DNA of 64,000 nt from Candidatus Levyibacteriota bacterium (lineage in GTDB: Bacteria; Patescibacteriota; Microgenomatia; Levybacterales; UBA12049), in NCBI GenBank assembly GCA_027459745.1, contig DAIDHL010000003.1, forward strand, positions 1,125 through 65,124, given 5' to 3'. The number at the start of each line of letters is the position of its first letter. The stretch's first letter is position 1. Both the position numbers and the translations under genes were made by a program. The notes under the pieces are model-generated. The model was not told the origin of the DNA and did not search any database. It was given only the letters and a program-made list of their open reading frames with translations. Positions 4,164-54,792 of this stretch are shown here, in pieces.

Positions 4164-5714
4164 TTACATTTCAATTGGCTCATTATGACGAGCATGAATA
4201 TCAGCTGCATGCTGTCTATAATCAGCTACAAATAATGCAGAAATTCCACCCGCAAAGGTAATGATAGATGCCCAGAAAAACACTACAGTATAGGCCGATA
4301 CGTTAGCTTGCACTTCCATTAAACTCGCTACAGTTTGTAAGGTGGTTGGAACTGTTGTATTGATCTGGGAGAAATGCATAATATTATACATCTGTGAATA
4401 GACGCTATTTGTCAAAATAGTCGCAAAGATTGCTGTACCAAAAGCTGCAGAAATATTACGTGCTAGGGCTAAAACTGAAGATGCGACACCAACTTCTTCA
4501 ATGGGAACAGTACTAGTAGCGGCTTGGGTCAAAGTAGGCAAGCCGGCACCTAAACCTGCTGCTAATAAAAATAAAAGTCCTGCTATATGCCAGAAACTCC
4601 AACGGATATCCAAGCCAGTAAATTGATACATCACAAATGCAGCCCAAAACATACCAACAGCAGTTAAGTATTTACCAGGCATTACCTGTGATAATCTTGC
4701 ACCCATTTGGGCTGAGATCATCATACCAAAAGCCATTGGTATAAAAACATAACCCGATTTGGTCACTGAATATCCTAAATAAGTCTGAACGAAAAGTGGA
4801 ATAAGAAAAATTCCACCAATCATACCCATGAATGAAATAAAAGAGGTGATAATAGCAGCGGTAAATGAGGGAATTTTAAAAAACTTTAGATCAACCACGG
4901 GTTCTTTTTGTCTTCTTTCATACCAGATAAATAAGTACCCAGATACTGCAGTAACAATGTAGCTCAAAACGCTGGCTTCGCTGCCCCAACCCCAGGTCTG
5001 GCCCTGATCCAGCACCAAAACCATAGTACCCAAACAAATACCTAATAATATAGACCCCTCATAGTCAAAATGATGTAGACCTTTAAATTCCTTGACAGTT
5101 TCTTTTATAAAGCGCATCGCCATAAAAGTACCCAGGGCGCCTAAGGGGACATTGACATAAAAAACAGACCGCCAGCCAAAAGTATCGATCAAAGGACCAC
5201 CTAATAATGGACCAAAAATAATAGCGGCAGCAAAAATGGCAGACCACATGCCCATGGCCATAGCGCGTTGCTTGGGTTGGGGGAAATTATACGCAATGAT
5301 TGATAGTGCAATAGGGTAGTCGATTGAAACTGTTATTGCCTGTAAAACGCGGAAGAAAATAATGGCAGGAAAATTCCAAGCCAGACCAGCAAGCATAGAA
5401 GTCAAAGTAAAACCGATAATACCTGCAAGATATAGTTTTTTACGCCCAATCATGTCACCCAGCTTACCAAATACTGGTACAAAAACTGCGTTAGCGATTA
5501 TATATGCTGTGGAAATCCAGCTAGCTTGTGAAATAGTGATACCAAAATCAGAGATAATTTTGGGCAACGCTAAATTCACAATACTACCATCCAGGCGACC
5601 CAAAAAACTAGAGATCATGACCGTTGCCAAAATCATCCATTGAAGAGAAGTAAAACCTTGTTTGGCTTCTTCTTTGACGGGAACTTGAGTTGTAGGTATT
5701 TTTTTCTTAGCCAT
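4164..5714 (-). CDS. MFS transporter, DHA2 (EmrB/QacA-like, 14 TMS) drug efflux
   Basis: ~14 hydrophobic segments, N-terminal MFS signature around GKLGDMIGRKK, 516 aa. Confidence 0.8.
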   Translation of the reverse strand: MAKKKIPTTQVPVKEEAKQGFTSLQWMILATVMISSFLGRLDGSIVNLALPKIISDFGITISQASWISTAYIIANAVFVPVFGKLGDMIGRKKLYLAGIIGFTLTSMLAGLAWNFPAIIFFRVLQAITVSIDYPIALSIIAYNFPQPKQRAMAMGMWSAIFAAAIIFGPLLGGPLIDTFGWRSVFYVNVPLGALGTFMAMRFIKETVKEFKGLHHFDYEGSILLGICLGTMVLVLDQGQTWGWGSEASVLSYIVTAVSGYLFIWYERRQKEPVVDLKFFKIPSFTAAIITSFISFMGMIGGIFLIPLFVQTYLGYSVTKSGYVFIPMAFGMMISAQMGARLSQVMPGKYLTAVGMFWAAFVMYQFTGLDIRWSFWHIAGLLFLLAAGLGAGLPTLTQAATSTVPIEEVGVASSVLALARNISAAFGTAIFATILTNSVYSQMYNIMHFSQINTTVPTTLQTVASLMEVQANVSAYTVVFFWASIITFAGGISALFVADYRQHAADIHARHNEPIEM

Positions 5715-9203: not shown

Positions 9204-9734
9204 CTAATTCCACAACCATCTTGTATGACTTTTATCACCGCTGGAACAGAATATGCCATGATATGGTTTACCACCTTTGGTGGTACCTTTCTTTTCTGAT
9301 GCTTGAGCACCACAGACTTCACATGTCACTCTTTCTACTTCTGGTGTGATGTCAATTTTAGGAGAATTTGCACGGAACATCTCGTCCGCTGAAGCTATTC
9401 CTTCAATGACCCCATATCCAGCAAATCCCAAAGCTCGACCAACTGCAGAGGTCTCTGCTACCTCATAAGGATTCTCTTTTTCAATTACTCGCGAAGAATC
9501 AAGATTTACTGAACTGATGCCAGTAAAAACTTTACCTCTTATCGTAACTTTGGCTTTAATGACCACTGGATTGTGCGAGAGAACTTCGGTTTCTACACTT
9601 TCCAAAGCTTTTTCCTCATGACCTAATTCAATTCTTTTGGCCACTGTCATATAATCTTTCCCATGTATTTGTACAATTCCACTGTTATTCATACTCTTCA
9701 CCTCCTCTCTGTCCCAAACTATCTCTCTTACCAT
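9204..9734 (-). CDS. Hypothetical protein with C-terminal zinc-ribbon-like Cys cluster
   Basis: Strong SD (GGAGGTGA) upstream. C-terminal CEVCG...CSSGDKSH cluster. No family recognised. Confidence 0.4.
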   Translation of the reverse strand: MVREIVWDREEVKSMNNSGIVQIHGKDYMTVAKRIELGHEEKALESVETEVLSHNPVVIKAKVTIRGKVFTGISSVNLDSSRVIEKENPYEVAETSAVGRALGFAGYGVIEGIASADEMFRANSPKIDITPEVERVTCEVCGAQASEKKGTTKGGKPYHGIFCSSGDKSHTRWLWN

Positions 9735-22428: not shown

Positions 22429-22695
22429 TCAATAACTAGTCATGCCACAACACAGAGCTGTTTTTAATGCTGCAATAAGTCTTCTTATAATAAAATGCAA
22501 TAAAAATTTTTCTCTCCTTAATGCTAATTCTTTACGATAATATGCTTCGTAGTAGATAAGTTCTAAAGGTCTGCGGTTTCTTGTTGATACTACTTCACCA
22601 TCTTGATGCTGCGATAATCTTTGCTTTAAATTAGAAGAATAACCTGTATATAGTTTCTTATCAAGATGACTACGTAGGATATATACGAAGTACAT
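22429..22695 (-). CDS. GIY-YIG nuclease family protein (small, UPF0213-like)
   Basis: YFVYILRS...KLYTGYSSNLKQRLSQH matches the GIY-YIG core. Confidence 0.6.
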   Translation of the reverse strand: MYFVYILRSHLDKKLYTGYSSNLKQRLSQHQDGEVVSTRNRRPLELIYYEAYYRKELALRREKFLLHFIIRRLIAALKTALCCGMTSY

Positions 22696-22856
22696 AGCGT
22701 TATCTTGTCATATTATTCGCTTCCTTTGACTCATTCATTTCGTCAAAGAGTGCTCCAATATGACCAATATTCGTTTACACGTACAGACTACTCAGTGCTT
22801 GCAACGAAGAAGTGCACCTTAGCGAACTGAAAGAAGCCAAGGTAAACGACTATTGG

Positions 22857-22937
22857 TGCGGATGAGAGGACTTGAACCTCCACGCCTTACGGCACAGCCA
22901 CCTCAAGACTGCGTGTATACCATTTCACCACATCCGC
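22857..22937 (-). tRNA. tRNA-Leu (anticodon GAG), type II with long variable arm
   Basis: Acceptor GCGGATG/CATCCGC, anticodon stem-loop CAGTC-TTGAGGT-GGCTG, variable arm TGCCGTAAGGCGT, T loop TTCAAGT. Confidence 0.8.
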
Positions 22938-26013: not shown

Positions 26014-26094
26014 TGCGGATGAGAGGACTTGAACCTCCATGCCTTACGGCACAGCGTCCTGAACACTGCGTGTATACCATTTCACCACATCCGC
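26014..26094 (-). tRNA. tRNA-Leu (anticodon CAG), type II
   Basis: Near-identical backbone to tRNA-Leu(GAG); anticodon loop TTCAGGA. Confidence 0.8.
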
Positions 26095-27647: not shown

Positions 27648-27728
27648 GCGGACGTGGTGGAATGGTAGACACGCAAGGTTTAGGACCTTGTGCCGTAAGG
27701 CGTGGGGGTTCAACTCCCTTCGTCCGCA
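27648..27728 (+). tRNA. tRNA-Leu (anticodon TAG), type II
   Basis: Acceptor GCGGACG/CGTCCGC, anticodon stem-loop CAAGG-TTTAGGA-CCTTG, variable arm TGCCGTAAGGCGT. Confidence 0.8.
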
Positions 27729-29410: not shown

Positions 29411-29441
29411 CGCGGTGTATTTGTGTTGAGCAAAACAAGTA

Positions 29442-29463
29442 CCCCGCCAAGCGGGGTTTTTTT
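29442..29463 (+). terminator. Attenuator terminator CCCCGC-CAA-GCGGGG + T7
   Basis: Perfect 6-bp GC stem followed by seven T residues, 12 nt upstream of the ilvB ATG. Confidence 0.6.
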
Positions 29464-29474
29464 ATGACAAAAAT

Positions 29475-33122: not shown

Positions 33123-33160
33123 CGGGTTAGATTTGGTGCAATAAACACACAAAATCATAT

Positions 33161-33181
33161 CCCGCGAAAGCGGGTTTTTTT
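33161..33181 (+). terminator. Attenuator terminator CCCGC-GAAA-GCGGG + T7
   Basis: GNRA-type loop. An upstream GCGGG copy at 33122-26 could form an antiterminator with CCCGC. Confidence 0.55.
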
Positions 33182-33826
33182 ATGGTAAATTTAGCAGAGA
33201 TAGAACCATCAATAAGATCATTTTCTACACCTTCAATAACTGAAGGAGGATTAGTAGTACCTCAAGCATTACCTATTCATGCTAGAGATAGATCGTTCTC
33301 AGATTTACGCAGAGTCCGATTTATAGACGCTGTAGATGAGGATCGTGGATACCCAATCTTAAAATACCTACCTCATTCTTCACAGCCAGTAATGTTTGGG
33401 ATACCACGAGGAGATCAACCAATCTATGGTGGAATATTGCGTAACATGGATCGTCATAATGTTGCATTATATGCACTAAACAAACAAATGGGTGGAGCAG
33501 AAAGAATAAGAACATATCTACGAGGATATTATGAAGTTAATAGACAAAAAAATGACCATTCGCGTCACATGGTTATCTTTGAAATGCATCCAGATGAGAA
33601 AGGCAAATTTGATCCAAAGGACTTACAGCCGGAAGAGTGGGGTTTTTTTGACCCTAACCAATATTTAACACAACAAAATATTCAAAGTATTATGTCTGCT
33701 GCAGCTGCTGATACATTAAGAGTTCAATATAGTAGAATATCTACGACAGCGTTTGAACAAAAAGCTCTTCAAGCCGAAAGAGCAGCTCGCAAGAAACATT
33801 CTTATTATGATCATCAAAGTGACTAA
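33182..33826 (+). CDS. Hypothetical protein (start uncertain; the ATG immediately follows the terminator T-run)
   Basis: 214-aa ORF with no recognisable motif. Confidence 0.4.
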   Translation: MVNLAEIEPSIRSFSTPSITEGGLVVPQALPIHARDRSFSDLRRVRFIDAVDEDRGYPILKYLPHSSQPVMFGIPRGDQPIYGGILRNMDRHNVALYALNKQMGGAERIRTYLRGYYEVNRQKNDHSRHMVIFEMHPDEKGKFDPKDLQPEEWGFFDPNQYLTQQNIQSIMSAAAADTLRVQYSRISTTAFEQKALQAERAARKKHSYYDHQSD

Positions 33827-39767: not shown

Positions 39768-39794
39768 CGGGGTTGTATTGATGTGCAATAGATA

Positions 39795-39816
39795 CCCCGC
39801 AAAGCGGGGTTTTTTT
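39795..39816 (+). terminator. Attenuator terminator CCCCGC-AAA-GCGGGG + T7
   Basis: Perfect 6-bp stem and a T7 run. The upstream GCGGGG copy supports an antiterminator alternative. Confidence 0.55.
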
Positions 39817-39847
39817 ATGGTTTGATACCTAAAGAAAGGAGGAAAAA

Positions 39848-44011: not shown

Positions 44012-45160
44012 ATGTATTTTAAAACCGCCAAACGCTTAGAATTATTTTCAGAATATGTCTTTGCTAAAATTGGCAGGGAAGTGGCCAAAATCGAGAAAGA
44101 GGCTGGTAAAAAGGTACTCAATTTCGGCATTGGTTCTCCTGACGTGCCGACCAGTGAAATTTATTTAGACAAATTGGAAGAATATTTGCATGATGGCAAA
44201 ATGCATTTGTATCCGGGTTTTCGTGCATGTAAGGAATTGTCTGAAGCCTTAATCAGTTGGTATCAACAAAGATTTAATGTTGATTTAAATTCAGATGAAT
44301 TATTGCCATTGTTGGGCGCTAAAGAAGGAATCGCCCATTTGCCTTTGGCTTTATTAAATGAAGGAGATGAGATATTAATTCCCAATCCAGGTTATCCAGC
44401 CTACACCGATCCGGCCTTAATGATCGGGGCTAAACCGATTTATTATGATTTAACGGATAACGAAACAAATCCGATTGATTTAACATCCCTATCAAAATTA
44501 ATAACACCTAAAACTAAATGTATGTGGGTAAATTTTCCGTCTAACCCGACTGGAAAAATAATAACTCTATCAGCTTTGGAGGAATTAGTAGAGTTTGCTA
44601 AAAAGCACAATTTAATAATTCTTTATGACAATGCTTATGCCGAAATTACCTTTGATGGGAATAAAGCACCCAGTATTTTACAAATTAAAGGAGCCAAAGA
44701 CATTGCCATTGAGATAGGTTCATTTTCTAAAACGTATTCGTTCGCTGGTTTACGTATGGGTTGGATTGTGGGGAATAAACAAATTGTCGATGCTCTGGCC
44801 AAAGTAAAATCACAAGTTGATTCAGGCATGTGGTTACCTTTACAAAAACTTGGTGCTTATGCACTGACTAATCCTGATCTGGTTTGGCAGAAACAAATGT
44901 TAGAAAGTTATCAACTCAGAAGAGATATTATAGCTAAAAAGCTTAAAACACTTGGTCTGATATTTGAATTACCACGCGGAGCTTTATATATTTGGGCCAA
45001 AATTCCGGATACATATAAAAATTCAGAAGAATATTCCATGCACATTCTACACGAGAAAAAAATTCTTTTGACACCAGGTACCGCCTTCGGTTCCAATGGA
45101 GAACGCTTTGTCAGAGTAAGTTATTGTGTAAATATAGAGGGGATAGAGAGGTATTTTTAA
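44012..45160 (+). CDS. Class I/II PLP-dependent aminotransferase (LL-DAP/aromatic aminotransferase-like)
   Basis: NPGYPAYTDPA... and the PLP-lysine motif SFSKTYSFAGLRMGW. Confidence 0.75.
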   Translation: MYFKTAKRLELFSEYVFAKIGREVAKIEKEAGKKVLNFGIGSPDVPTSEIYLDKLEEYLHDGKMHLYPGFRACKELSEALISWYQQRFNVDLNSDELLPLLGAKEGIAHLPLALLNEGDEILIPNPGYPAYTDPALMIGAKPIYYDLTDNETNPIDLTSLSKLITPKTKCMWVNFPSNPTGKIITLSALEELVEFAKKHNLIILYDNAYAEITFDGNKAPSILQIKGAKDIAIEIGSFSKTYSFAGLRMGWIVGNKQIVDALAKVKSQVDSGMWLPLQKLGAYALTNPDLVWQKQMLESYQLRRDIIAKKLKTLGLIFELPRGALYIWAKIPDTYKNSEEYSMHILHEKKILLTPGTAFGSNGERFVRVSYCVNIEGIERYF

Positions 45161-45166
45161 TAGTTA

Positions 45167-45283
45167 TTGTCATCCCGAGCGAACGTAGTGAGTCGAGGGA
45201 TCTCTCGTGGATGCGAGAAACTTCACACATAAAATGTGAGATTCCTCCACTCCTTCACTTTGCTCAGTAGGTCGGAATGACAA
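45167..45283. repeat. 117-bp imperfect-palindromic MITE/REP-like element (copy A) between the aminotransferase and pheS
   Basis: Termini TTGTCATCCCGAGCGAAC...GTCGGAATGACAA. The core carries two small hairpins (TCTCG-TGGATG-CGAGA and TCACA-TAAAA-TGTGA). Confidence 0.5.
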
Positions 45284-45338
45284 TTTATCAAAATTAAAAA
45301 TTGGAAATTATTCAATATAGTATTATAATTAACACATT

Positions 45339-46373
45339 ATGGAAGAGGAATTATTGAGAATTAAAAACAACGCCATTTCACTCATCCTGGAAGCTAAAAG
45401 CAAACAAGAATTAAATGAAATCAAACTTCAATTTGTCGGACGTAGTGGTGAACTAACTAAAATATTTAAAGAAATAACCAAACTCTCTCCAGATAAGAAA
45501 GCTGAAGTAGGTAAAAAAATCAACGAAACCAAACAAATTGTCGAAAATTTAATCAACCAAACCGAGGCCAAACTTGGTGAAAAAGCCAGACAGCGAGTCG
45601 CCCATAATATTGACGTTACTGATCCGGCCGTCCTTCCTCCACTTGGACATTTACATCCAGTCACTCAGGTCATCGAAGAGATAACCAACATTTTCGAGCG
45701 TATCGGTTTTACCCGTGAACGTTATCCTGAAATTGATTTTGATTGGTTTGCATTTGAAGCACTAAATTTTCCCCAAGATCATCCAGCAAGAGATGACTGG
45801 GAAACGTTTTTTATAAGACAACAACCTGATCCCAAACATGGACCGGTTGTATTAATACCGCATACTTCAAACGGACAAATCCGAGAAATGTTAAATAAAG
45901 AACTACCTATCAAAATGTTAAATATTGCCAAGACTTATCGACGACAATCTGATGTTTCACACGCTGCGATGTTCCATCAGTTTGAAACTCTAGTCGTAGG
46001 CAAGAATATCTCCATAGTCCATTTAAAAGGTACTTTGGATTATTTTGTAAAATCATATTTCGGTGCCGATAGAAAAACTAGAATTAGACCATATCATTTT
46101 CAATTTACCGAACCTTCATTTGAAGTTGATATTTCTTGTGGAGTGTGTGATGGAAAGGGCTGTAAACTTTGCAAAGCTGGTTGGCTCGAATTGGGTGGGG
46201 CAGGGATGGTCCATCCAAATGTTCTAAAAGCATGTAATATCGATCCCAACGAATATTCAGGTTTTGCCTCAGGATTTGGTGTGGAACGAGTTCTAATGAT
46301 GCGTGAGGGTTTGCAGATAGATGATCTACGAACGTTGTATGGAAATAAGCTAGAGTTTCTAGAACAGTTTTAA
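45339..46373 (+). CDS. pheS: Phenylalanine--tRNA ligase alpha subunit
   Basis: Class II core motifs (FQFTEPSFEVD, GAGMVHPNVL). Confidence 0.9.
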   Translation: MEEELLRIKNNAISLILEAKSKQELNEIKLQFVGRSGELTKIFKEITKLSPDKKAEVGKKINETKQIVENLINQTEAKLGEKARQRVAHNIDVTDPAVLPPLGHLHPVTQVIEEITNIFERIGFTRERYPEIDFDWFAFEALNFPQDHPARDDWETFFIRQQPDPKHGPVVLIPHTSNGQIREMLNKELPIKMLNIAKTYRRQSDVSHAAMFHQFETLVVGKNISIVHLKGTLDYFVKSYFGADRKTRIRPYHFQFTEPSFEVDISCGVCDGKGCKLCKAGWLELGGAGMVHPNVLKACNIDPNEYSGFASGFGVERVLMMREGLQIDDLRTLYGNKLEFLEQF

Positions 46374-46377
46374 CGCA

Positions 46378-46494
46378 TTGTGATCCCGACCGACTGAGCA
46401 AAGTGAAGGAGTGGAGGAATCTCTCGCGAATGCGAGAAAAATTGCACATAAAGTGCGAAATCCCTCGGCTCACTCCGTTCGCTCGAGATGACAG
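46378..46494. repeat. 117-bp MITE/REP-like element (copy B) between pheS and pheT
   Basis: Its arms are about 90% identical to the opposite arms of copy A. The core is in the same orientation, with compensatory hairpin changes. Confidence 0.5.
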
Positions 46495-46511: not shown

Positions 46512-48503
46512 ATGAACATAAAAATACTTGATTCTTGGTTAAGAGAATATTTACAAACAGATGCTACTGCATACGAAGTGGCCAAGCAGATCTCGCTGAC
46601 AAGTGTCTCAATTGAAAGAGTAGAGAAGCACAAAGATGACTTTATTTACGATATTGAAGTAACGACCAATCGTCCCGACTTGGCTAGCGTTAACGGCTTG
46701 GCACGAGAAGCGGGAACTGTATTACCACAGAATGGGATAAGAGCCATTTATAAACCCCTTGTCCTTATGCACGAAGAGAAACAATCTAGTACAAACAATG
46801 AGATTGCTTCGTCGTCTTTAACTCCTGTCCATGACTTATTAAAAATTGAACTTGCTATCAAAGCCGTCAACCGTGTATGTGCGGTTGTAATGGACGTAAA
46901 AATTGACAAATCGCCTGAGCAAGTTATTGAAAGACTCGAGACTAGTGGGATTCGAAGTTTAAATAACTTGATAGATATTACCAACTATGTCATGCGGGTA
47001 ACCGGACAACCAACGCATGTGTTTGACTACGACCGCTTAGGGGGAACAGAACTAACTATTCGAGAAGCCAAAACCGGAGAAGAAATCACCACACTTGATA
47101 ATAAAACATACACACTTAATGGGGGAGAAGTAATAGCAGAAAACGAAAAGGGCGAAATAGTTGATTTATTAGCTATCATGGGTCTAAAAAACAGTGTAGT
47201 GACCGAACAAACCAAGCGTATCGTTTTCTTTGTCAATAATATTGACTCAAACAAAATTAGAAAAGCTTCCATGAATCTAGGTATCCGAACTGAAGCAGCT
47301 CAATTAAATGAAAAACATTTAGATCCCAACCTTTGTGAAGTAGCACTACAATATGGAATTCAACTTTATCAAGAATTAGCCGAGGGTAAAGTTGTCAGTC
47401 CTATCATAGACCTTTATCCGCATGCATCTGAAGAAAAACAGGTCGTCGTCAGTTTGGCTAAGATAAACAGCGTAATCGGCATCGACATATCCGCAGAAAA
47501 ATCGATTGATATTTTGACTAAATTAGGTTTCCAGGTCCAGCAAGAAGAAGACAACTTATATGTAACTGTGCCTACTATTCGCGCTTATGATGTTACTCTT
47601 CCCGAAGATATTATCGAAGAAATCGCTCGTGTCTATGGCTATCACAATTTACCAGTAGAGCTTCCTTCACTAAATACACAACAAGCTATACAACAGGAAA
47701 AAAATCCTTTTTACTGGGAACAAAGAATCAAAAATACCTTAAAATATTGGGGATTTACCGAAACTTACACCTATTCCATGATACCCGAGAACCTCTATGA
47801 AGGTCCTCTGAATGAAGCGGTTACCATTTCCAACCCCCTCAATGAAGAGTTCGTTTATATGCGCAATACCTTGATACCAAGCTTATTGCGTGTAGTTAGT
47901 GAGAACAAAAGTTATGAACAAGTCAAGATTTTTGAGATTGCCAACGTTTATCAGAAAAGACAAAATAAATTGCCGGAAGAAATCAGAATGCTAGCGGGAG
48001 TAATTAAGCAAAAACAAATCTCATTTTTTGTAGTTAAAGGTTACTTACAACAGCTATTTAATGATCTGGGAGTTAATAATTATGAGTTTAAACCGTCAGA
48101 TCAAGGCGGAGATGGCACAAAAATCTATGTTGCGGAAAAATATCTTGGAGATATAGAAATTTTAGATGAAAATTTAATTGACTTCGAACTTAATTTTGAA
48201 TTGTTAATAGCCCATGCCTCCCTGAGAAAAACCTATATTCCTGCCAGTAAATTCCCTCCTGTCCTTGAAGATATTTCTTTGGTGATCCCGGCAGATATTT
48301 TGACTCAGGAGGTTATAGATTTAATTAAAAAACAAAGTTCTTTAATCGTTAATGTTGAATTAATAGACCGCTATGAAAATAACCGAACTTTCCATGTTAT
48401 ATATAGGGATAATGAAAAGAATTTAACACAAGATGAAATAAAGACTCTGCATGAAAAAATCCTTTCTTCCCTCAAAAAGAAATGGCAAATTAAGGAAGAG
48501 TAA
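46512..48503 (+). CDS. pheT: Phenylalanine--tRNA ligase beta subunit (short form)
   Basis: MNIKILDSWLREYL is a canonical PheT N-terminus, and the C-terminal ferredoxin-fold domain is present. Start placed after the repeat. Confidence 0.85.
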   Translation: MNIKILDSWLREYLQTDATAYEVAKQISLTSVSIERVEKHKDDFIYDIEVTTNRPDLASVNGLAREAGTVLPQNGIRAIYKPLVLMHEEKQSSTNNEIASSSLTPVHDLLKIELAIKAVNRVCAVVMDVKIDKSPEQVIERLETSGIRSLNNLIDITNYVMRVTGQPTHVFDYDRLGGTELTIREAKTGEEITTLDNKTYTLNGGEVIAENEKGEIVDLLAIMGLKNSVVTEQTKRIVFFVNNIDSNKIRKASMNLGIRTEAAQLNEKHLDPNLCEVALQYGIQLYQELAEGKVVSPIIDLYPHASEEKQVVVSLAKINSVIGIDISAEKSIDILTKLGFQVQQEEDNLYVTVPTIRAYDVTLPEDIIEEIARVYGYHNLPVELPSLNTQQAIQQEKNPFYWEQRIKNTLKYWGFTETYTYSMIPENLYEGPLNEAVTISNPLNEEFVYMRNTLIPSLLRVVSENKSYEQVKIFEIANVYQKRQNKLPEEIRMLAGVIKQKQISFFVVKGYLQQLFNDLGVNNYEFKPSDQGGDGTKIYVAEKYLGDIEILDENLIDFELNFELLIAHASLRKTYIPASKFPPVLEDISLVIPADILTQEVIDLIKKQSSLIVNVELIDRYENNRTFHVIYRDNEKNLTQDEIKTLHEKILSSLKKKWQIKEE

Positions 48504-52458: not shown

Positions 52459-52707
52459 ATTATTAAATATTTTCCTGTCTTTACTATATTTTTGTGTTTT
52501 AGATTGTAAAATAAAATATGAACTTTGTCGAAAAACATAAAAAACTTTGGACCATTATCATCATAATAGCTTCTTTAGCATTAATTTTGATGTCATTTTT
52601 GCCATACATTTCACTCTTATAGCATCTATACTCGTATTTAAATCATATCAACCAATCTAATGAGAATTCTGGACAACCCAGAATGACTAGAGTAGAATCA
52701 CTACAGC

Positions 52708-54792
52708 ATGCAGCTTCAACAGTCTATTGTCACCGCCGGAGGAATATATAAACGGTACTCTGCACTTCTAGAAAAGTTAGGTATAAATACCTTTCAAGAC
52801 TTCCTTTATCACTTTCCTCATCGCTATGATGACTTTTCACAAATTAAAATGATTTCCGCCCTAATACCCGGAGAAACTATAACTGTAAAAGGAACTGTCT
52901 TAAGTATAAAAAATTCTTATACCAAGTCTCACAAGACCTTACAAAAAGCCGTAGTAACAGACGGTACCGGGACGTTGGAGGTAACATGGTTTAATCAACC
53001 TTATCTAACTAAATCCATAAAAACTAATACAGAAATTGTCTTAGCGGGACAAACTGAAAGGAGTGGTAGTAGAACAACCATGCTTTCACCTGAGTATGAA
53101 GTTTTAAGTTCTTCCAACACTGAGACTCTTCATACCGGACGACTGGTGCCAGTTTATCCGGAAACCAGAGGTATCTCATCTAAATGGCTACGTCGACAAA
53201 TTTTTAAATTACTGGAGCAATATAAATTCATCTTGTCAGATACTCTACCCTCTGAAATCAAACAACAATATAATTTCTTGCATCTAGCAGATGCACTAAA
53301 CCTCATTCATTTCCCTAATAATTATGAGGACGTAGAACAGGCTCGAAAAAGGCTTGCTTTTGATGAGCTATTTTATTTACAACTAAAAGCCTTACATCGT
53401 AAACAGATGTGGAAACAGCGAAAATTAACCTCACCGTTGAAAGTAGATGAATACAGAACCAAAATCAATACCTTAATAAATTCTCTTCCTTTTCCTCTCA
53501 CTAAAGCTCAAAGTAGGGAATTGAATAGTATTTTTTCCGACTTACAAAGTGATCAGCCCATGAATAGATTACTCCAGGGTGATGTGGGTAGCGGAAAAAC
53601 CATTGTGGCTGCTCTTTCTATTTACGTCGCTATATTAAATGGGAAACAGGGAGTTATCATGGCCCCAACCGAAATTCTAGCTGAACAACATCATAAATCT
53701 CTAACAGAACTTTTCTCACCTCTAGGAATTCAAGTCGATTTAATTACCGGCTCAACTAAAAGTATTAAGAATAAAGAACTAAGATTAAAGAATATAGAAG
53801 GGGAAAGTGCTAAATCATTAATCCTAAATCCTAAATCTAATATTCTCGTCGGTACCCATGCCTTGCTCTATGACAAAGCTGATTTCTCCAATGCTGGAGT
53901 GGTAGTAATCGATGAGCAACATCGTTTTGGCGTCGAACAACGTGCTTTGATGCGCGAAAAAGGCAATAATCCACATGTTTTAACTATGACTGCCACGCCA
54001 ATTCCTAGAACTATGGCCTTAACTGTCTATGCAGACTTAGATGTCTCATATCTGGATGAAATGCCCGTGGGTAGAAAGCCGATTAAGACCTGGCTTGTTC
54101 CTACCGAAAAAAGGAAAGGAGCTTATCAGTGGATTGAAAAACAAATAAAAGACACCAGATCCCAGGCCTTTATAATCTGTCCTTTCATTGAGGAATCAGA
54201 AAATATGCAATCGGTTAAGGCAGCCAGTGTAGAATTTACCAGATTAAAAACGGAAGTTTTCCCTAATTTAAAACTGGGTTTATTACATGGACGTATGAAA
54301 GCCAAAGAAAAAGACCAGGTATTGCGGGATTTTAAAGATAAAAAATTTGATATTTTAGTTGCGACACCGGTAGTAGAAGTGGGCATAGATATTCCCAATG
54401 CAACGATTATAGTCATCGAAGCCAGTGAAAGATTCGGCCTCAGCCAGTTACATCAACTTAGAGGCAGAGTGGGCAGGGGAGACAAACAATCTTATTGTTT
54501 GCTTTTTGCACAAGCCAAAAATGAACAAACCACCACTCGTTTAAAAGCCATGGAAATAACTCATTCGGGATCTAAATTAGCAGAACTTGATTTACAGCTT
54601 AGAGGTTCTGGGGATCTATATGGAACCAGACAAAGTGGATATAAAATGCTAAAAATTGCTTCTTTTTCCGATAAAGATCTACTCATGAAGGCTAGAACTG
54701 CTGCAAAAATGATCTATTCTAAGATTGAGAATTATCCACAACTTAGCGCACAACTGCTGGAGCTAAACGCACAGAAGATCTCCCAGGATTAA
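52708..54792 (+). CDS. recG: ATP-dependent DNA helicase RecG
   Basis: Wedge domain followed by an SF2 helicase: GDVGSGKT, DEQHRFG, QLRGRVGRG. Confidence 0.85.
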   Translation: MQLQQSIVTAGGIYKRYSALLEKLGINTFQDFLYHFPHRYDDFSQIKMISALIPGETITVKGTVLSIKNSYTKSHKTLQKAVVTDGTGTLEVTWFNQPYLTKSIKTNTEIVLAGQTERSGSRTTMLSPEYEVLSSSNTETLHTGRLVPVYPETRGISSKWLRRQIFKLLEQYKFILSDTLPSEIKQQYNFLHLADALNLIHFPNNYEDVEQARKRLAFDELFYLQLKALHRKQMWKQRKLTSPLKVDEYRTKINTLINSLPFPLTKAQSRELNSIFSDLQSDQPMNRLLQGDVGSGKTIVAALSIYVAILNGKQGVIMAPTEILAEQHHKSLTELFSPLGIQVDLITGSTKSIKNKELRLKNIEGESAKSLILNPKSNILVGTHALLYDKADFSNAGVVVIDEQHRFGVEQRALMREKGNNPHVLTMTATPIPRTMALTVYADLDVSYLDEMPVGRKPIKTWLVPTEKRKGAYQWIEKQIKDTRSQAFIICPFIEESENMQSVKAASVEFTRLKTEVFPNLKLGLLHGRMKAKEKDQVLRDFKDKKFDILVATPVVEVGIDIPNATIIVIEASERFGLSQLHQLRGRVGRGDKQSYCLLFAQAKNEQTTTRLKAMEITHSGSKLAELDLQLRGSGDLYGTRQSGYKMLKIASFSDKDLLMKARTAAKMIYSKIENYPQLSAQLLELNAQKISQD

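Follow-up and report, generated by a model that had tools for sequence, protein, structure and literature searches.

The locus around pheS in a member of the Patescibacteria raises the question of what fills the spacers on both sides of the gene, and how it came to be there. The DNA analysed, referred to here as the window, is a stretch of 64,000 nucleotides from a Candidatus Levyibacteriota bacterium (contig DAIDHL010000003.1). In it, pheS (45339–46373, plus strand; Pfam PF01409 and PF02912) is bracketed by two palindromic elements of 117 bp that occupy both flanking spacers: element A (45167–45283), between an aminotransferase gene (44012–45160) and pheS, and element B (46378–46494), between pheS and pheT (46512–48503, plus strand, counted from its conserved start). 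The identities of the three genes are all backed by Pfam, and the pheS product is 100% identical to a database protein (P0001). The coordinates and sequences of both elements are as reported in a first-pass annotation of the window. The elements are real and not random spacer: a 36-nt arm core gave 0 matches in 100 shuffles. Beyond A and B, no further copies occur within the 64 kb. On sequence comparison, the elements are a long-loop hetero-doublet form within the NTS/SRM-Ssn repeat family described in 2025, and each of them is probably a copy, lacking the gene, of that system's ‘hairpin – ssn gene – hairpin’ cassette.

Each element carries two distinct motifs, a type-1 arm of 38 nt and a type-2 arm of 46 nt, which lie on opposite strands and both run inward from a TGTCAT terminus. 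Their general form is TGTCAT, an ATYCC stem, a loop, GGRAT and then C. Element A (GC content 48%, against 36.8% for the window) consists of a type-1 arm, a centre of two hairpins, and an inverted type-2 arm. The type-1 arm of A is SRM-like (45167–45204, plus strand); it begins with TTGTCAT and has the stem ATCCC (45172–45176)/GGGAT (45197–45201) around the loop GAGCGAACGTAGTGAGTCGA, followed by C at 45202. The type-2 arm of A (45238–45283, minus strand) reads TTGTCATTCCGACCTACTGAGCAAAGTGAAGGAGTGGAGGAATCTC on the minus strand, with the stem ATTCC/GGAAT and then C. Element B is a ‘flop’ version of A, composed of a type-2 arm (46378–46423, plus strand), a centre oriented as in A, and an inverted type-1 arm (46457–46494, minus strand; CTGTCATCTCGAGCGAACGGAGTGAGCCGAGGGATTTC). 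The arms have a GC content of 48–58% and the centre of 39–42%. Opposite arms of the two elements are complementary, at 88% over 56 nt for the left arm of B with the right one of A and at 89% over 37 nt for the right arm of B with the left one of A, in line with the match of about 90% claimed at first pass. The termini described there as of the TTGTCAT...ATGACAA type are exact in A and imperfect in B (TTGTGAT...ATGACAG).

Element A looks intact, and element B, in which four positions critical in Neisseria have changed, may be a decaying copy. These changes are GTG for GTC, T for the C that follows the palindrome, and one mismatch in each stem: a C.A mismatch in the ATCCC/GGAAT stem of the type-2 arm and a T.G pair in the type-1 arm. 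Three of the four arms in the window hence carry TGTCAT, the exception being the type-2 arm of B with TGTGAT, and three of the four have the post-palindrome C, which is T in the type-1 arm of B. The difference between the two arm types, ATCCC...GGGAT versus ATTCC...GGAAT, is compensated inside each arm and not across arms, which suggests that each arm's own hairpin is the unit under selection.

The same arms are found well outside the window. When public collections were searched for the arm core (GAGCGAACGNAGTGAGNNGAGGGAT, or a degenerate version of it), 48 loci were found, comprising three in genomes (Uhrbacteria, Falkowbacteria and a Rhodohalobacter) and 45 in metagenomes, with a GC content ranging from 30 to 66%; all share the 25-nt core of the type-1 arm of A. 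Conservation was counted over the 43 distinct arm copies in these loci and the window. It extends into flanks that were not part of the search: (T)GTCATCCC is present upstream in 31–41 of the 43 copies, and C downstream in 34. In the segment 5′ of the palindrome, which was also outside the search pattern, G is conserved in 33 copies, T in 35, C in 31, A in 34 and T in 40. The free base of CG-N-AG, the proposed centre of a triloop, is represented by all four bases. The stems covary: 45 of 71 GTCAT-YYY...RRR-AT candidates are complementary, where 12.6 are expected and the maximum in 2000 partner permutations is 24, and the complementary types across loci include CCC/GGG, TCC/GGA, CCT/AGG and TTC/GAA. 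The type-2 arm (GATTCCTCCAC...GGTCGGAATGACA) also occurs more widely, in L017, L022, L023, L025, L029, L033 and L036. Arm patterns were also run against viral contigs, in two scans that turned up either no match or chance ones within purine-rich coding regions, and a protein-database search for more copies using the reading frame through element B produced no candidate.

The system that these arms resemble was described by Chenal et al. (Nat Commun 2025, PMC11893778). Ssn proteins (cd10448; 94 residues in N. meningitidis) are small single-domain GIY-YIG proteins whose genes are flanked by NTS/SRM hairpin repeats, the NTS sequence being CGTCATTCCCGCGMAVGCGGGAATCYRG and the published SRM pattern HGTCWYN(0-2)YYVSBRHN(0-5)WNVSBRGN(0-2)RNCYNB. 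Ssn binds NTS solely as single-stranded DNA, on one strand only, and does not bind RNA; binding requires the post-palindrome C, cutting requires the three preceding bases, and the cut is made a few nucleotides upstream (PMC11893778). In Neisseria, an NTS-gene-NTS arrangement reduces transformation. Rickettsia is listed among the SRM-rich genera, and an architecture for hairpin doublets like that of insertion sequences was raised as an idea, not demonstrated (PMC11893778). The window arms share with NTS/SRM a GTCAT 5′ of an imperfect palindrome, a pyrimidine/purine-rich stem and then C, and a direction. In other genomes, inverted copies of the arm family flank small single-domain GIY-YIG genes; like NTS, the repeats are also scattered intergenically and can bracket other genes. 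They differ from NTS/SRM in that the loop of the window arms is 20–30 nt long as against 0–5 nt, that a fixed hetero-doublet unites two distinct arm types, and that the host belongs to the Patescibacteria, a group absent from PMC11893778. Strict matches to the SRM pattern are present in the related loci L040, L068 and L071. We note that the motif at 5179–5206 of L040 (TGTCATTCCCGCGCAAGCGGGAATCCAC) is identical to the Neisseria NTS consensus, and that its contig also carries long-loop arms and a GIY-YIG gene of the GFTxKY type. Our search of the literature for the arm sequence itself, or for GIY-YIG together with miniature inverted-repeat transposable elements (MITEs) or UPF0213, found nothing relevant.

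In several loci the arms are associated with small GIY-YIG genes. An open reading frame of about 95 residues lies beside or between arms in L019, L026, L033/L040 and L037/L049. That of L019 encodes 96 residues with PF01541 as the sole domain, and the other arm-adjacent frames were identified as GIY-YIG by a local profile. The order is type-1 arm, open reading frame and inverted arm in L026, and doublet, open reading frame and second-arm repeat in L019 and L033/L040. In L033, the GIY-YIG gene stands between direct repeats made up of the type-2 arm, 21 nt and GTCGGAATGACAA. A side observation concerns L037 (850–1400) and L049 (250–800), in which the GIY-YIG gene and its upstream arm are inserted directly after a tRNA gene and the tRNA 3′ end (ctcccaccttccgca) is repeated beyond them, resembling an integration site; the genes there are of the GKGxKYT type (UPF0213-like) and not of the GFTxKY type.

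Loci that were found by protein similarity alone show the same arrangement. Those numbered L073–L082 and L083–L090 have a type-1 arm, the gene and an inverted type-2 arm, with the type-2 arm downstream of the GIY-YIG genes in L073 and L083. This arrangement, type 1 before the gene and inverted type 2 behind it, holds for two genes of Patescibacteria type, P0128 and P0186. In L070 a doublet precedes the gene. L071 has a strict NTS (CGTCATTCCCGCGAAGGCGGGAATCCAG) on both sides of the gene, and its protein is 40% identical to the L019 protein; through this identity there is indirect support for regarding the arm-adjacent genes as Ssn-type. The GIY-YIG family gave at least 7,900 matches at E ≤ 1e-10, and among the 120 best-scoring of the matches listed nearly all have PF01541 alone and most are 85–100 residues long. 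Database proteins of the family that are over-extended at the N-terminus start with peptides derived from the arms (for instance VIPS, CHPE and SSRA). A PDB search gave weak UPF0213 matches only, and no Ssn structure.

Element A has the same arm order as the bracketed genes, with 33–39 nt in the place of the gene, consistent with each element being a copy of the cassette that lacks the gene. The mobility and function of the elements are what we infer from such comparisons. Whenever replication, repair or DNA uptake exposes single strands, each arm would fold into its own hairpin. An Ssn-type nuclease would then bind the arm hairpin and cut a few nucleotides 5′ of GTCAT, which on each strand is the outer edge of the element. 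The elements would spread as selfish non-autonomous units, and could affect how the bracketed pheS takes part in recombination or transformation, in the way that NTS-gene-NTS does in Neisseria. The exchange of arms relative to the centre would be best explained if the centre had been inverted, as the inverted arms recombined with each other or allowed template switching.

Relatives show when the elements arrived. The pheS genes of L065, L066 and L068 are 90%, 85% and 79% identical to that of the window. The distance from the pheS stop to the pheT start is 138 nt in the window, 4 nt in both L065 and L066, and 84 nt of unrelated sequence in L068; from the aminotransferase gene to pheS it is 178 nt in the window and 46 nt in L065, L066 and L068 not being comparable here. 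The site of A is empty in L065, and the site of B is empty in L065 and L066, so that insertion polymorphism, for which the first-pass annotation suggested a check, is indeed seen. It follows from the 4-nt and 46-nt spacers that both elements were gained in the lineage of the window (134 and 132 nt), and on this comparison A and B are recent lineage-specific insertions. The empty sites in relatives with 85–90% pheS identity provide clean evidence for the gain of hairpin doublets as discrete units. A and B each have an A-rich tail on their right, but the two tails are not significantly similar (215 of 2000 shuffles score as well, and so do 1.6% of genomic 17-mers), and we make no claim that the mobile unit measures about 133 bp instead of 117 bp.

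Two further observations were made in these relatives. In L068, three SRM-like hairpins (9566–9660) form an in-frame insertion of about 41 residues (PRHAELVSASAVIPAQAGIQKRKSWILNQVQDDKLSVQN) in pheT, and one of the hairpins, TGTCATTCCAGCGCAAGCTGGAATCCAG, fits the strict published SRM pattern. In L066, pheS comes after rplT, with a gap of 635 nt (2191–2825) in which no gene is called; in the window and L065, rplT and pheS have between them the aminotransferase gene and a block of aromatic-amino-acid genes.

We now consider other explanations, the first being that the structure matters as RNA. The centres of A (45203–45239, plus strand; hairpin 1 at 45203–45218, hairpin 2 at 45223–45239) and B (46422–46458, plus strand; hairpin 1 at 46422–46437, hairpin 2 at 46442–46458) share their orientation and 30 of 39 nt, and have z = −3.5 and −4.0, respectively, as DNA; to this extent the two small, same-oriented hairpins of the first-pass annotation are borne out. 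Between A and B the arms are swapped relative to the centre. The whole element is predicted to form a long imperfect hairpin with a forked tip, with z from −3.7 to −5.1 as RNA and from −2.0 to −2.9 as DNA. The further claim that the differences between the central hairpins are compensatory was overstated. Hairpin 1 differs by a single one-sided change (T.G to C-G), and in hairpin 2 one pair is replaced on both sides (A-T to G-C), one is changed on a single side and one is gained; there is one true double change, and the covariation of the two sequences, which is equalled by 262 of 500 shuffles, has no statistical weight. Because the centre is unconserved in other family members, and the covariation rests on one base pair, the central hairpins would not be the selected structure; the structure under selection is most likely the single-stranded DNA hairpin of each arm, and neither RNA nor the central hairpins. 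A role for the elements in an aminotransferase-pheS-pheT transcript, as a stabiliser, processing site or attenuator with functional central hairpins, is in our view unlikely. It would account for the good fold of the whole element as RNA, for the equal orientation of the centre relative to transcription in both copies, and for the fact that every central stem difference keeps or adds pairs. However, two copies are expected to share an orientation by chance in 50% of cases; the centre is conserved in no other family member, and the loops between arms measure anything between 8 and about 60 nt. Conservation lies in the arms, where it tracks GIY-YIG genes and not transcription units, and close relatives express pheS-pheT without the elements. 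Neither element contains a terminator-like site (a GC-rich stem followed by a T-run), and Rfam gave no match, either for the whole window at gathering thresholds or for the locus at E up to 10, where there was noise only; the suggestion of a termination or processing signal is thus unsupported. Furthermore, Ssn does not bind RNA (PMC11893778).

The alternative description of the elements as ‘MITE- or REP-like’ was right in kind, given the empty orthologous sites in relatives and the wide dispersal of this palindromic family. Taken literally, each half of it fares less well. Classical MITEs are internal-deletion derivatives of insertion sequences with a DDE transposase, moved by cut-and-paste, and the terminal inverted repeats TTGTCAT/ATGACAA, the length of about 117 bp, the intergenic sites and the presence or absence among relatives are all in keeping with them; however, there is no target-site duplication at A or B, the full-length relatives encode between or beside their arms only the GIY-YIG open reading frame of about 95 residues and no transposase, and the termini are conserved along with the GIY-YIG gene across genomes of 30–66% GC, making this origin most improbable. 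We regard it as very unlikely, too, that the elements are repeats of the REP/REPIN or IS200/IS605 type, mobilised by a Y1 (HUH) transposase (RAYT/TnpA) and linked to GIY-YIG incidentally. Inverted hairpin doublets are certainly what REPINs and BIMEs consist of, and recognition of hairpins in single-stranded DNA is also the principle of IS200/IS605 (PMC11893778); against this, strict NTS motifs flank the same GIY-YIG protein family, and the arm-adjacent open reading frame is always GIY-YIG, with the limit that no systematic search of the loci for Y1 transposases was made. More doubtful than the cassette origin itself, and something to which we give a small chance, is that SRM-like hetero-doublets are true non-autonomous mobile elements moved in trans by GIY-YIG Ssn nucleases, through nicks at the outer edge on each strand and a fold-back single-stranded intermediate. 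The flip and flop of the centre would on that reading be due to the fold-back intermediate.

Several points weigh against our preferred explanation of A and B as gene-less copies of an Ssn/NTS cassette. The published SRM pattern gives no match in the window, because the arms there have a loop of 20–30 nt and differ at two stem positions. Under nearest-neighbour DNA parameters, single arms are no more stable than shuffles, and the form of the arm hairpin, with a 5-bp stem, tandem G.A pairs and a C-GNA-G triloop, is one that we infer ourselves. No cognate nuclease gene adjoins A or B, both window copies being gene-less, and there is no GFTxKY-type GIY-YIG gene in the 64 kb. The sole small GIY-YIG open reading frame there (22429–22695, minus strand; 88 residues; PF01541, E = 1.7e-15) falls outside the subfamily of the GFTxKY-type genes adjacent to arms, with 29% identity to the L019 protein. 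Neither a target-site duplication at A or B nor a known strand-transfer chemistry accounts for movement. Finally, there are two visible copies only, which makes copy number, the flip/flop and any function anecdotal.

Comparison with other repeat families helps to place the elements. The NIMEs of Neisseria are dRS3-RS-dRS3 units (PMC1797815), and resemble the window elements in having a short spacer of lower GC inside two inverted GC-richer hairpin repeats, in adjoining genes and in varying between strains. Unlike the two isolated units of the window, NIMEs occur in long arrays and are specific to Neisseria, and the window units have different arm sequences and a centre of two mini-hairpins. 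REP/BIME, REPIN-RAYT and IS200/IS605 with their PATE derivatives are likewise non-autonomous inverted hairpin doublets tied to a single small gene with the same flanking hairpins, and recognition is likely to be on single-stranded DNA in both cases; the difference lies in the enzyme, which is a GIY-YIG nuclease and not a Y1/HUH transposase, and for a GIY-YIG nuclease no covalent strand-transfer mechanism is known. Rickettsia palindromic elements are also palindromic repeats able to insert in frame into coding sequence (compare pheT of L068), but their sequences are unrelated as far as tested, and both window copies are intergenic. Like the window elements, the inverted terminal repeats of parvoviruses such as adeno-associated virus (AAV) have a long palindrome around two small palindromes, giving a T- or Y-shaped fold, and come in two configurations, flip and flop, between which the inner part is inverted against the arms. 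The likeness is confined to form: the window elements are chromosomal and not replicon termini, and they have no Rep/HUH nickase and no sign of hairpin-primed replication.

The SRM-like content of the 64 kb is made up of the four arms and one solo hairpin. The latter is a short SRM-like hairpin, GTCAT-TCTGG-GTTGT-CCAGA-ATT (52666–52688, minus strand), located 20 nt upstream of a recG-like gene (52708–54792); the orthologous position in L066 (10141–10176) holds a degenerate version. The small GIY-YIG open reading frame at 22429–22695 has a C-terminus that departs from its relatives. A palindrome, GTCATATT...AATATGACAAG (22704–22764, minus strand), lies 8 nt upstream of its ATG and downstream of a tRNA gene (22857–22937, minus strand), and the stretch between the tRNA gene and the palindrome resembles decayed arm sequence. 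This tRNA gene is one of three long-arm tRNA genes within 5 kb that are 80–94% similar to one another, the others being at 26014–26094 (minus strand) and 27648–27728 (plus strand), so that two are direct and one inverted. Elsewhere in the window there are three terminator-like copies of TACCCCGC(C/A)AAGCGGGGTTTTTTTATG on the plus strand (29440–29466, 33158–33184 and 39793–39819), with 81–96% identity.

The elements have immediate consequences for annotation. An in-frame ATG (46488–46490), noticed at first pass, lies within the type-1 arm of element B, eight codons upstream of ATG 46512 (MNIKILDSWL), which is the start kept in relatives; the pheT start should be corrected to 46512. The arms likewise explain spurious N-terminal extensions and small open reading frames (VIPSE.., CHPE.., SSRA..) in the databases.

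More broadly, the Ssn/NTS system would on our analysis reach into an ultra-small genome of the Patescibacteria, and would include a long-loop variant that is missed by the published pattern. Since this variant escapes the pattern, present SRM counts are likely to be underestimates. If GIY-YIG Ssn nucleases did move such doublets in trans, bacteria would have a form of DNA transposition or homing based on GIY-YIG, whose autonomous unit would be ‘type-1 arm, gene, type-2 arm’.

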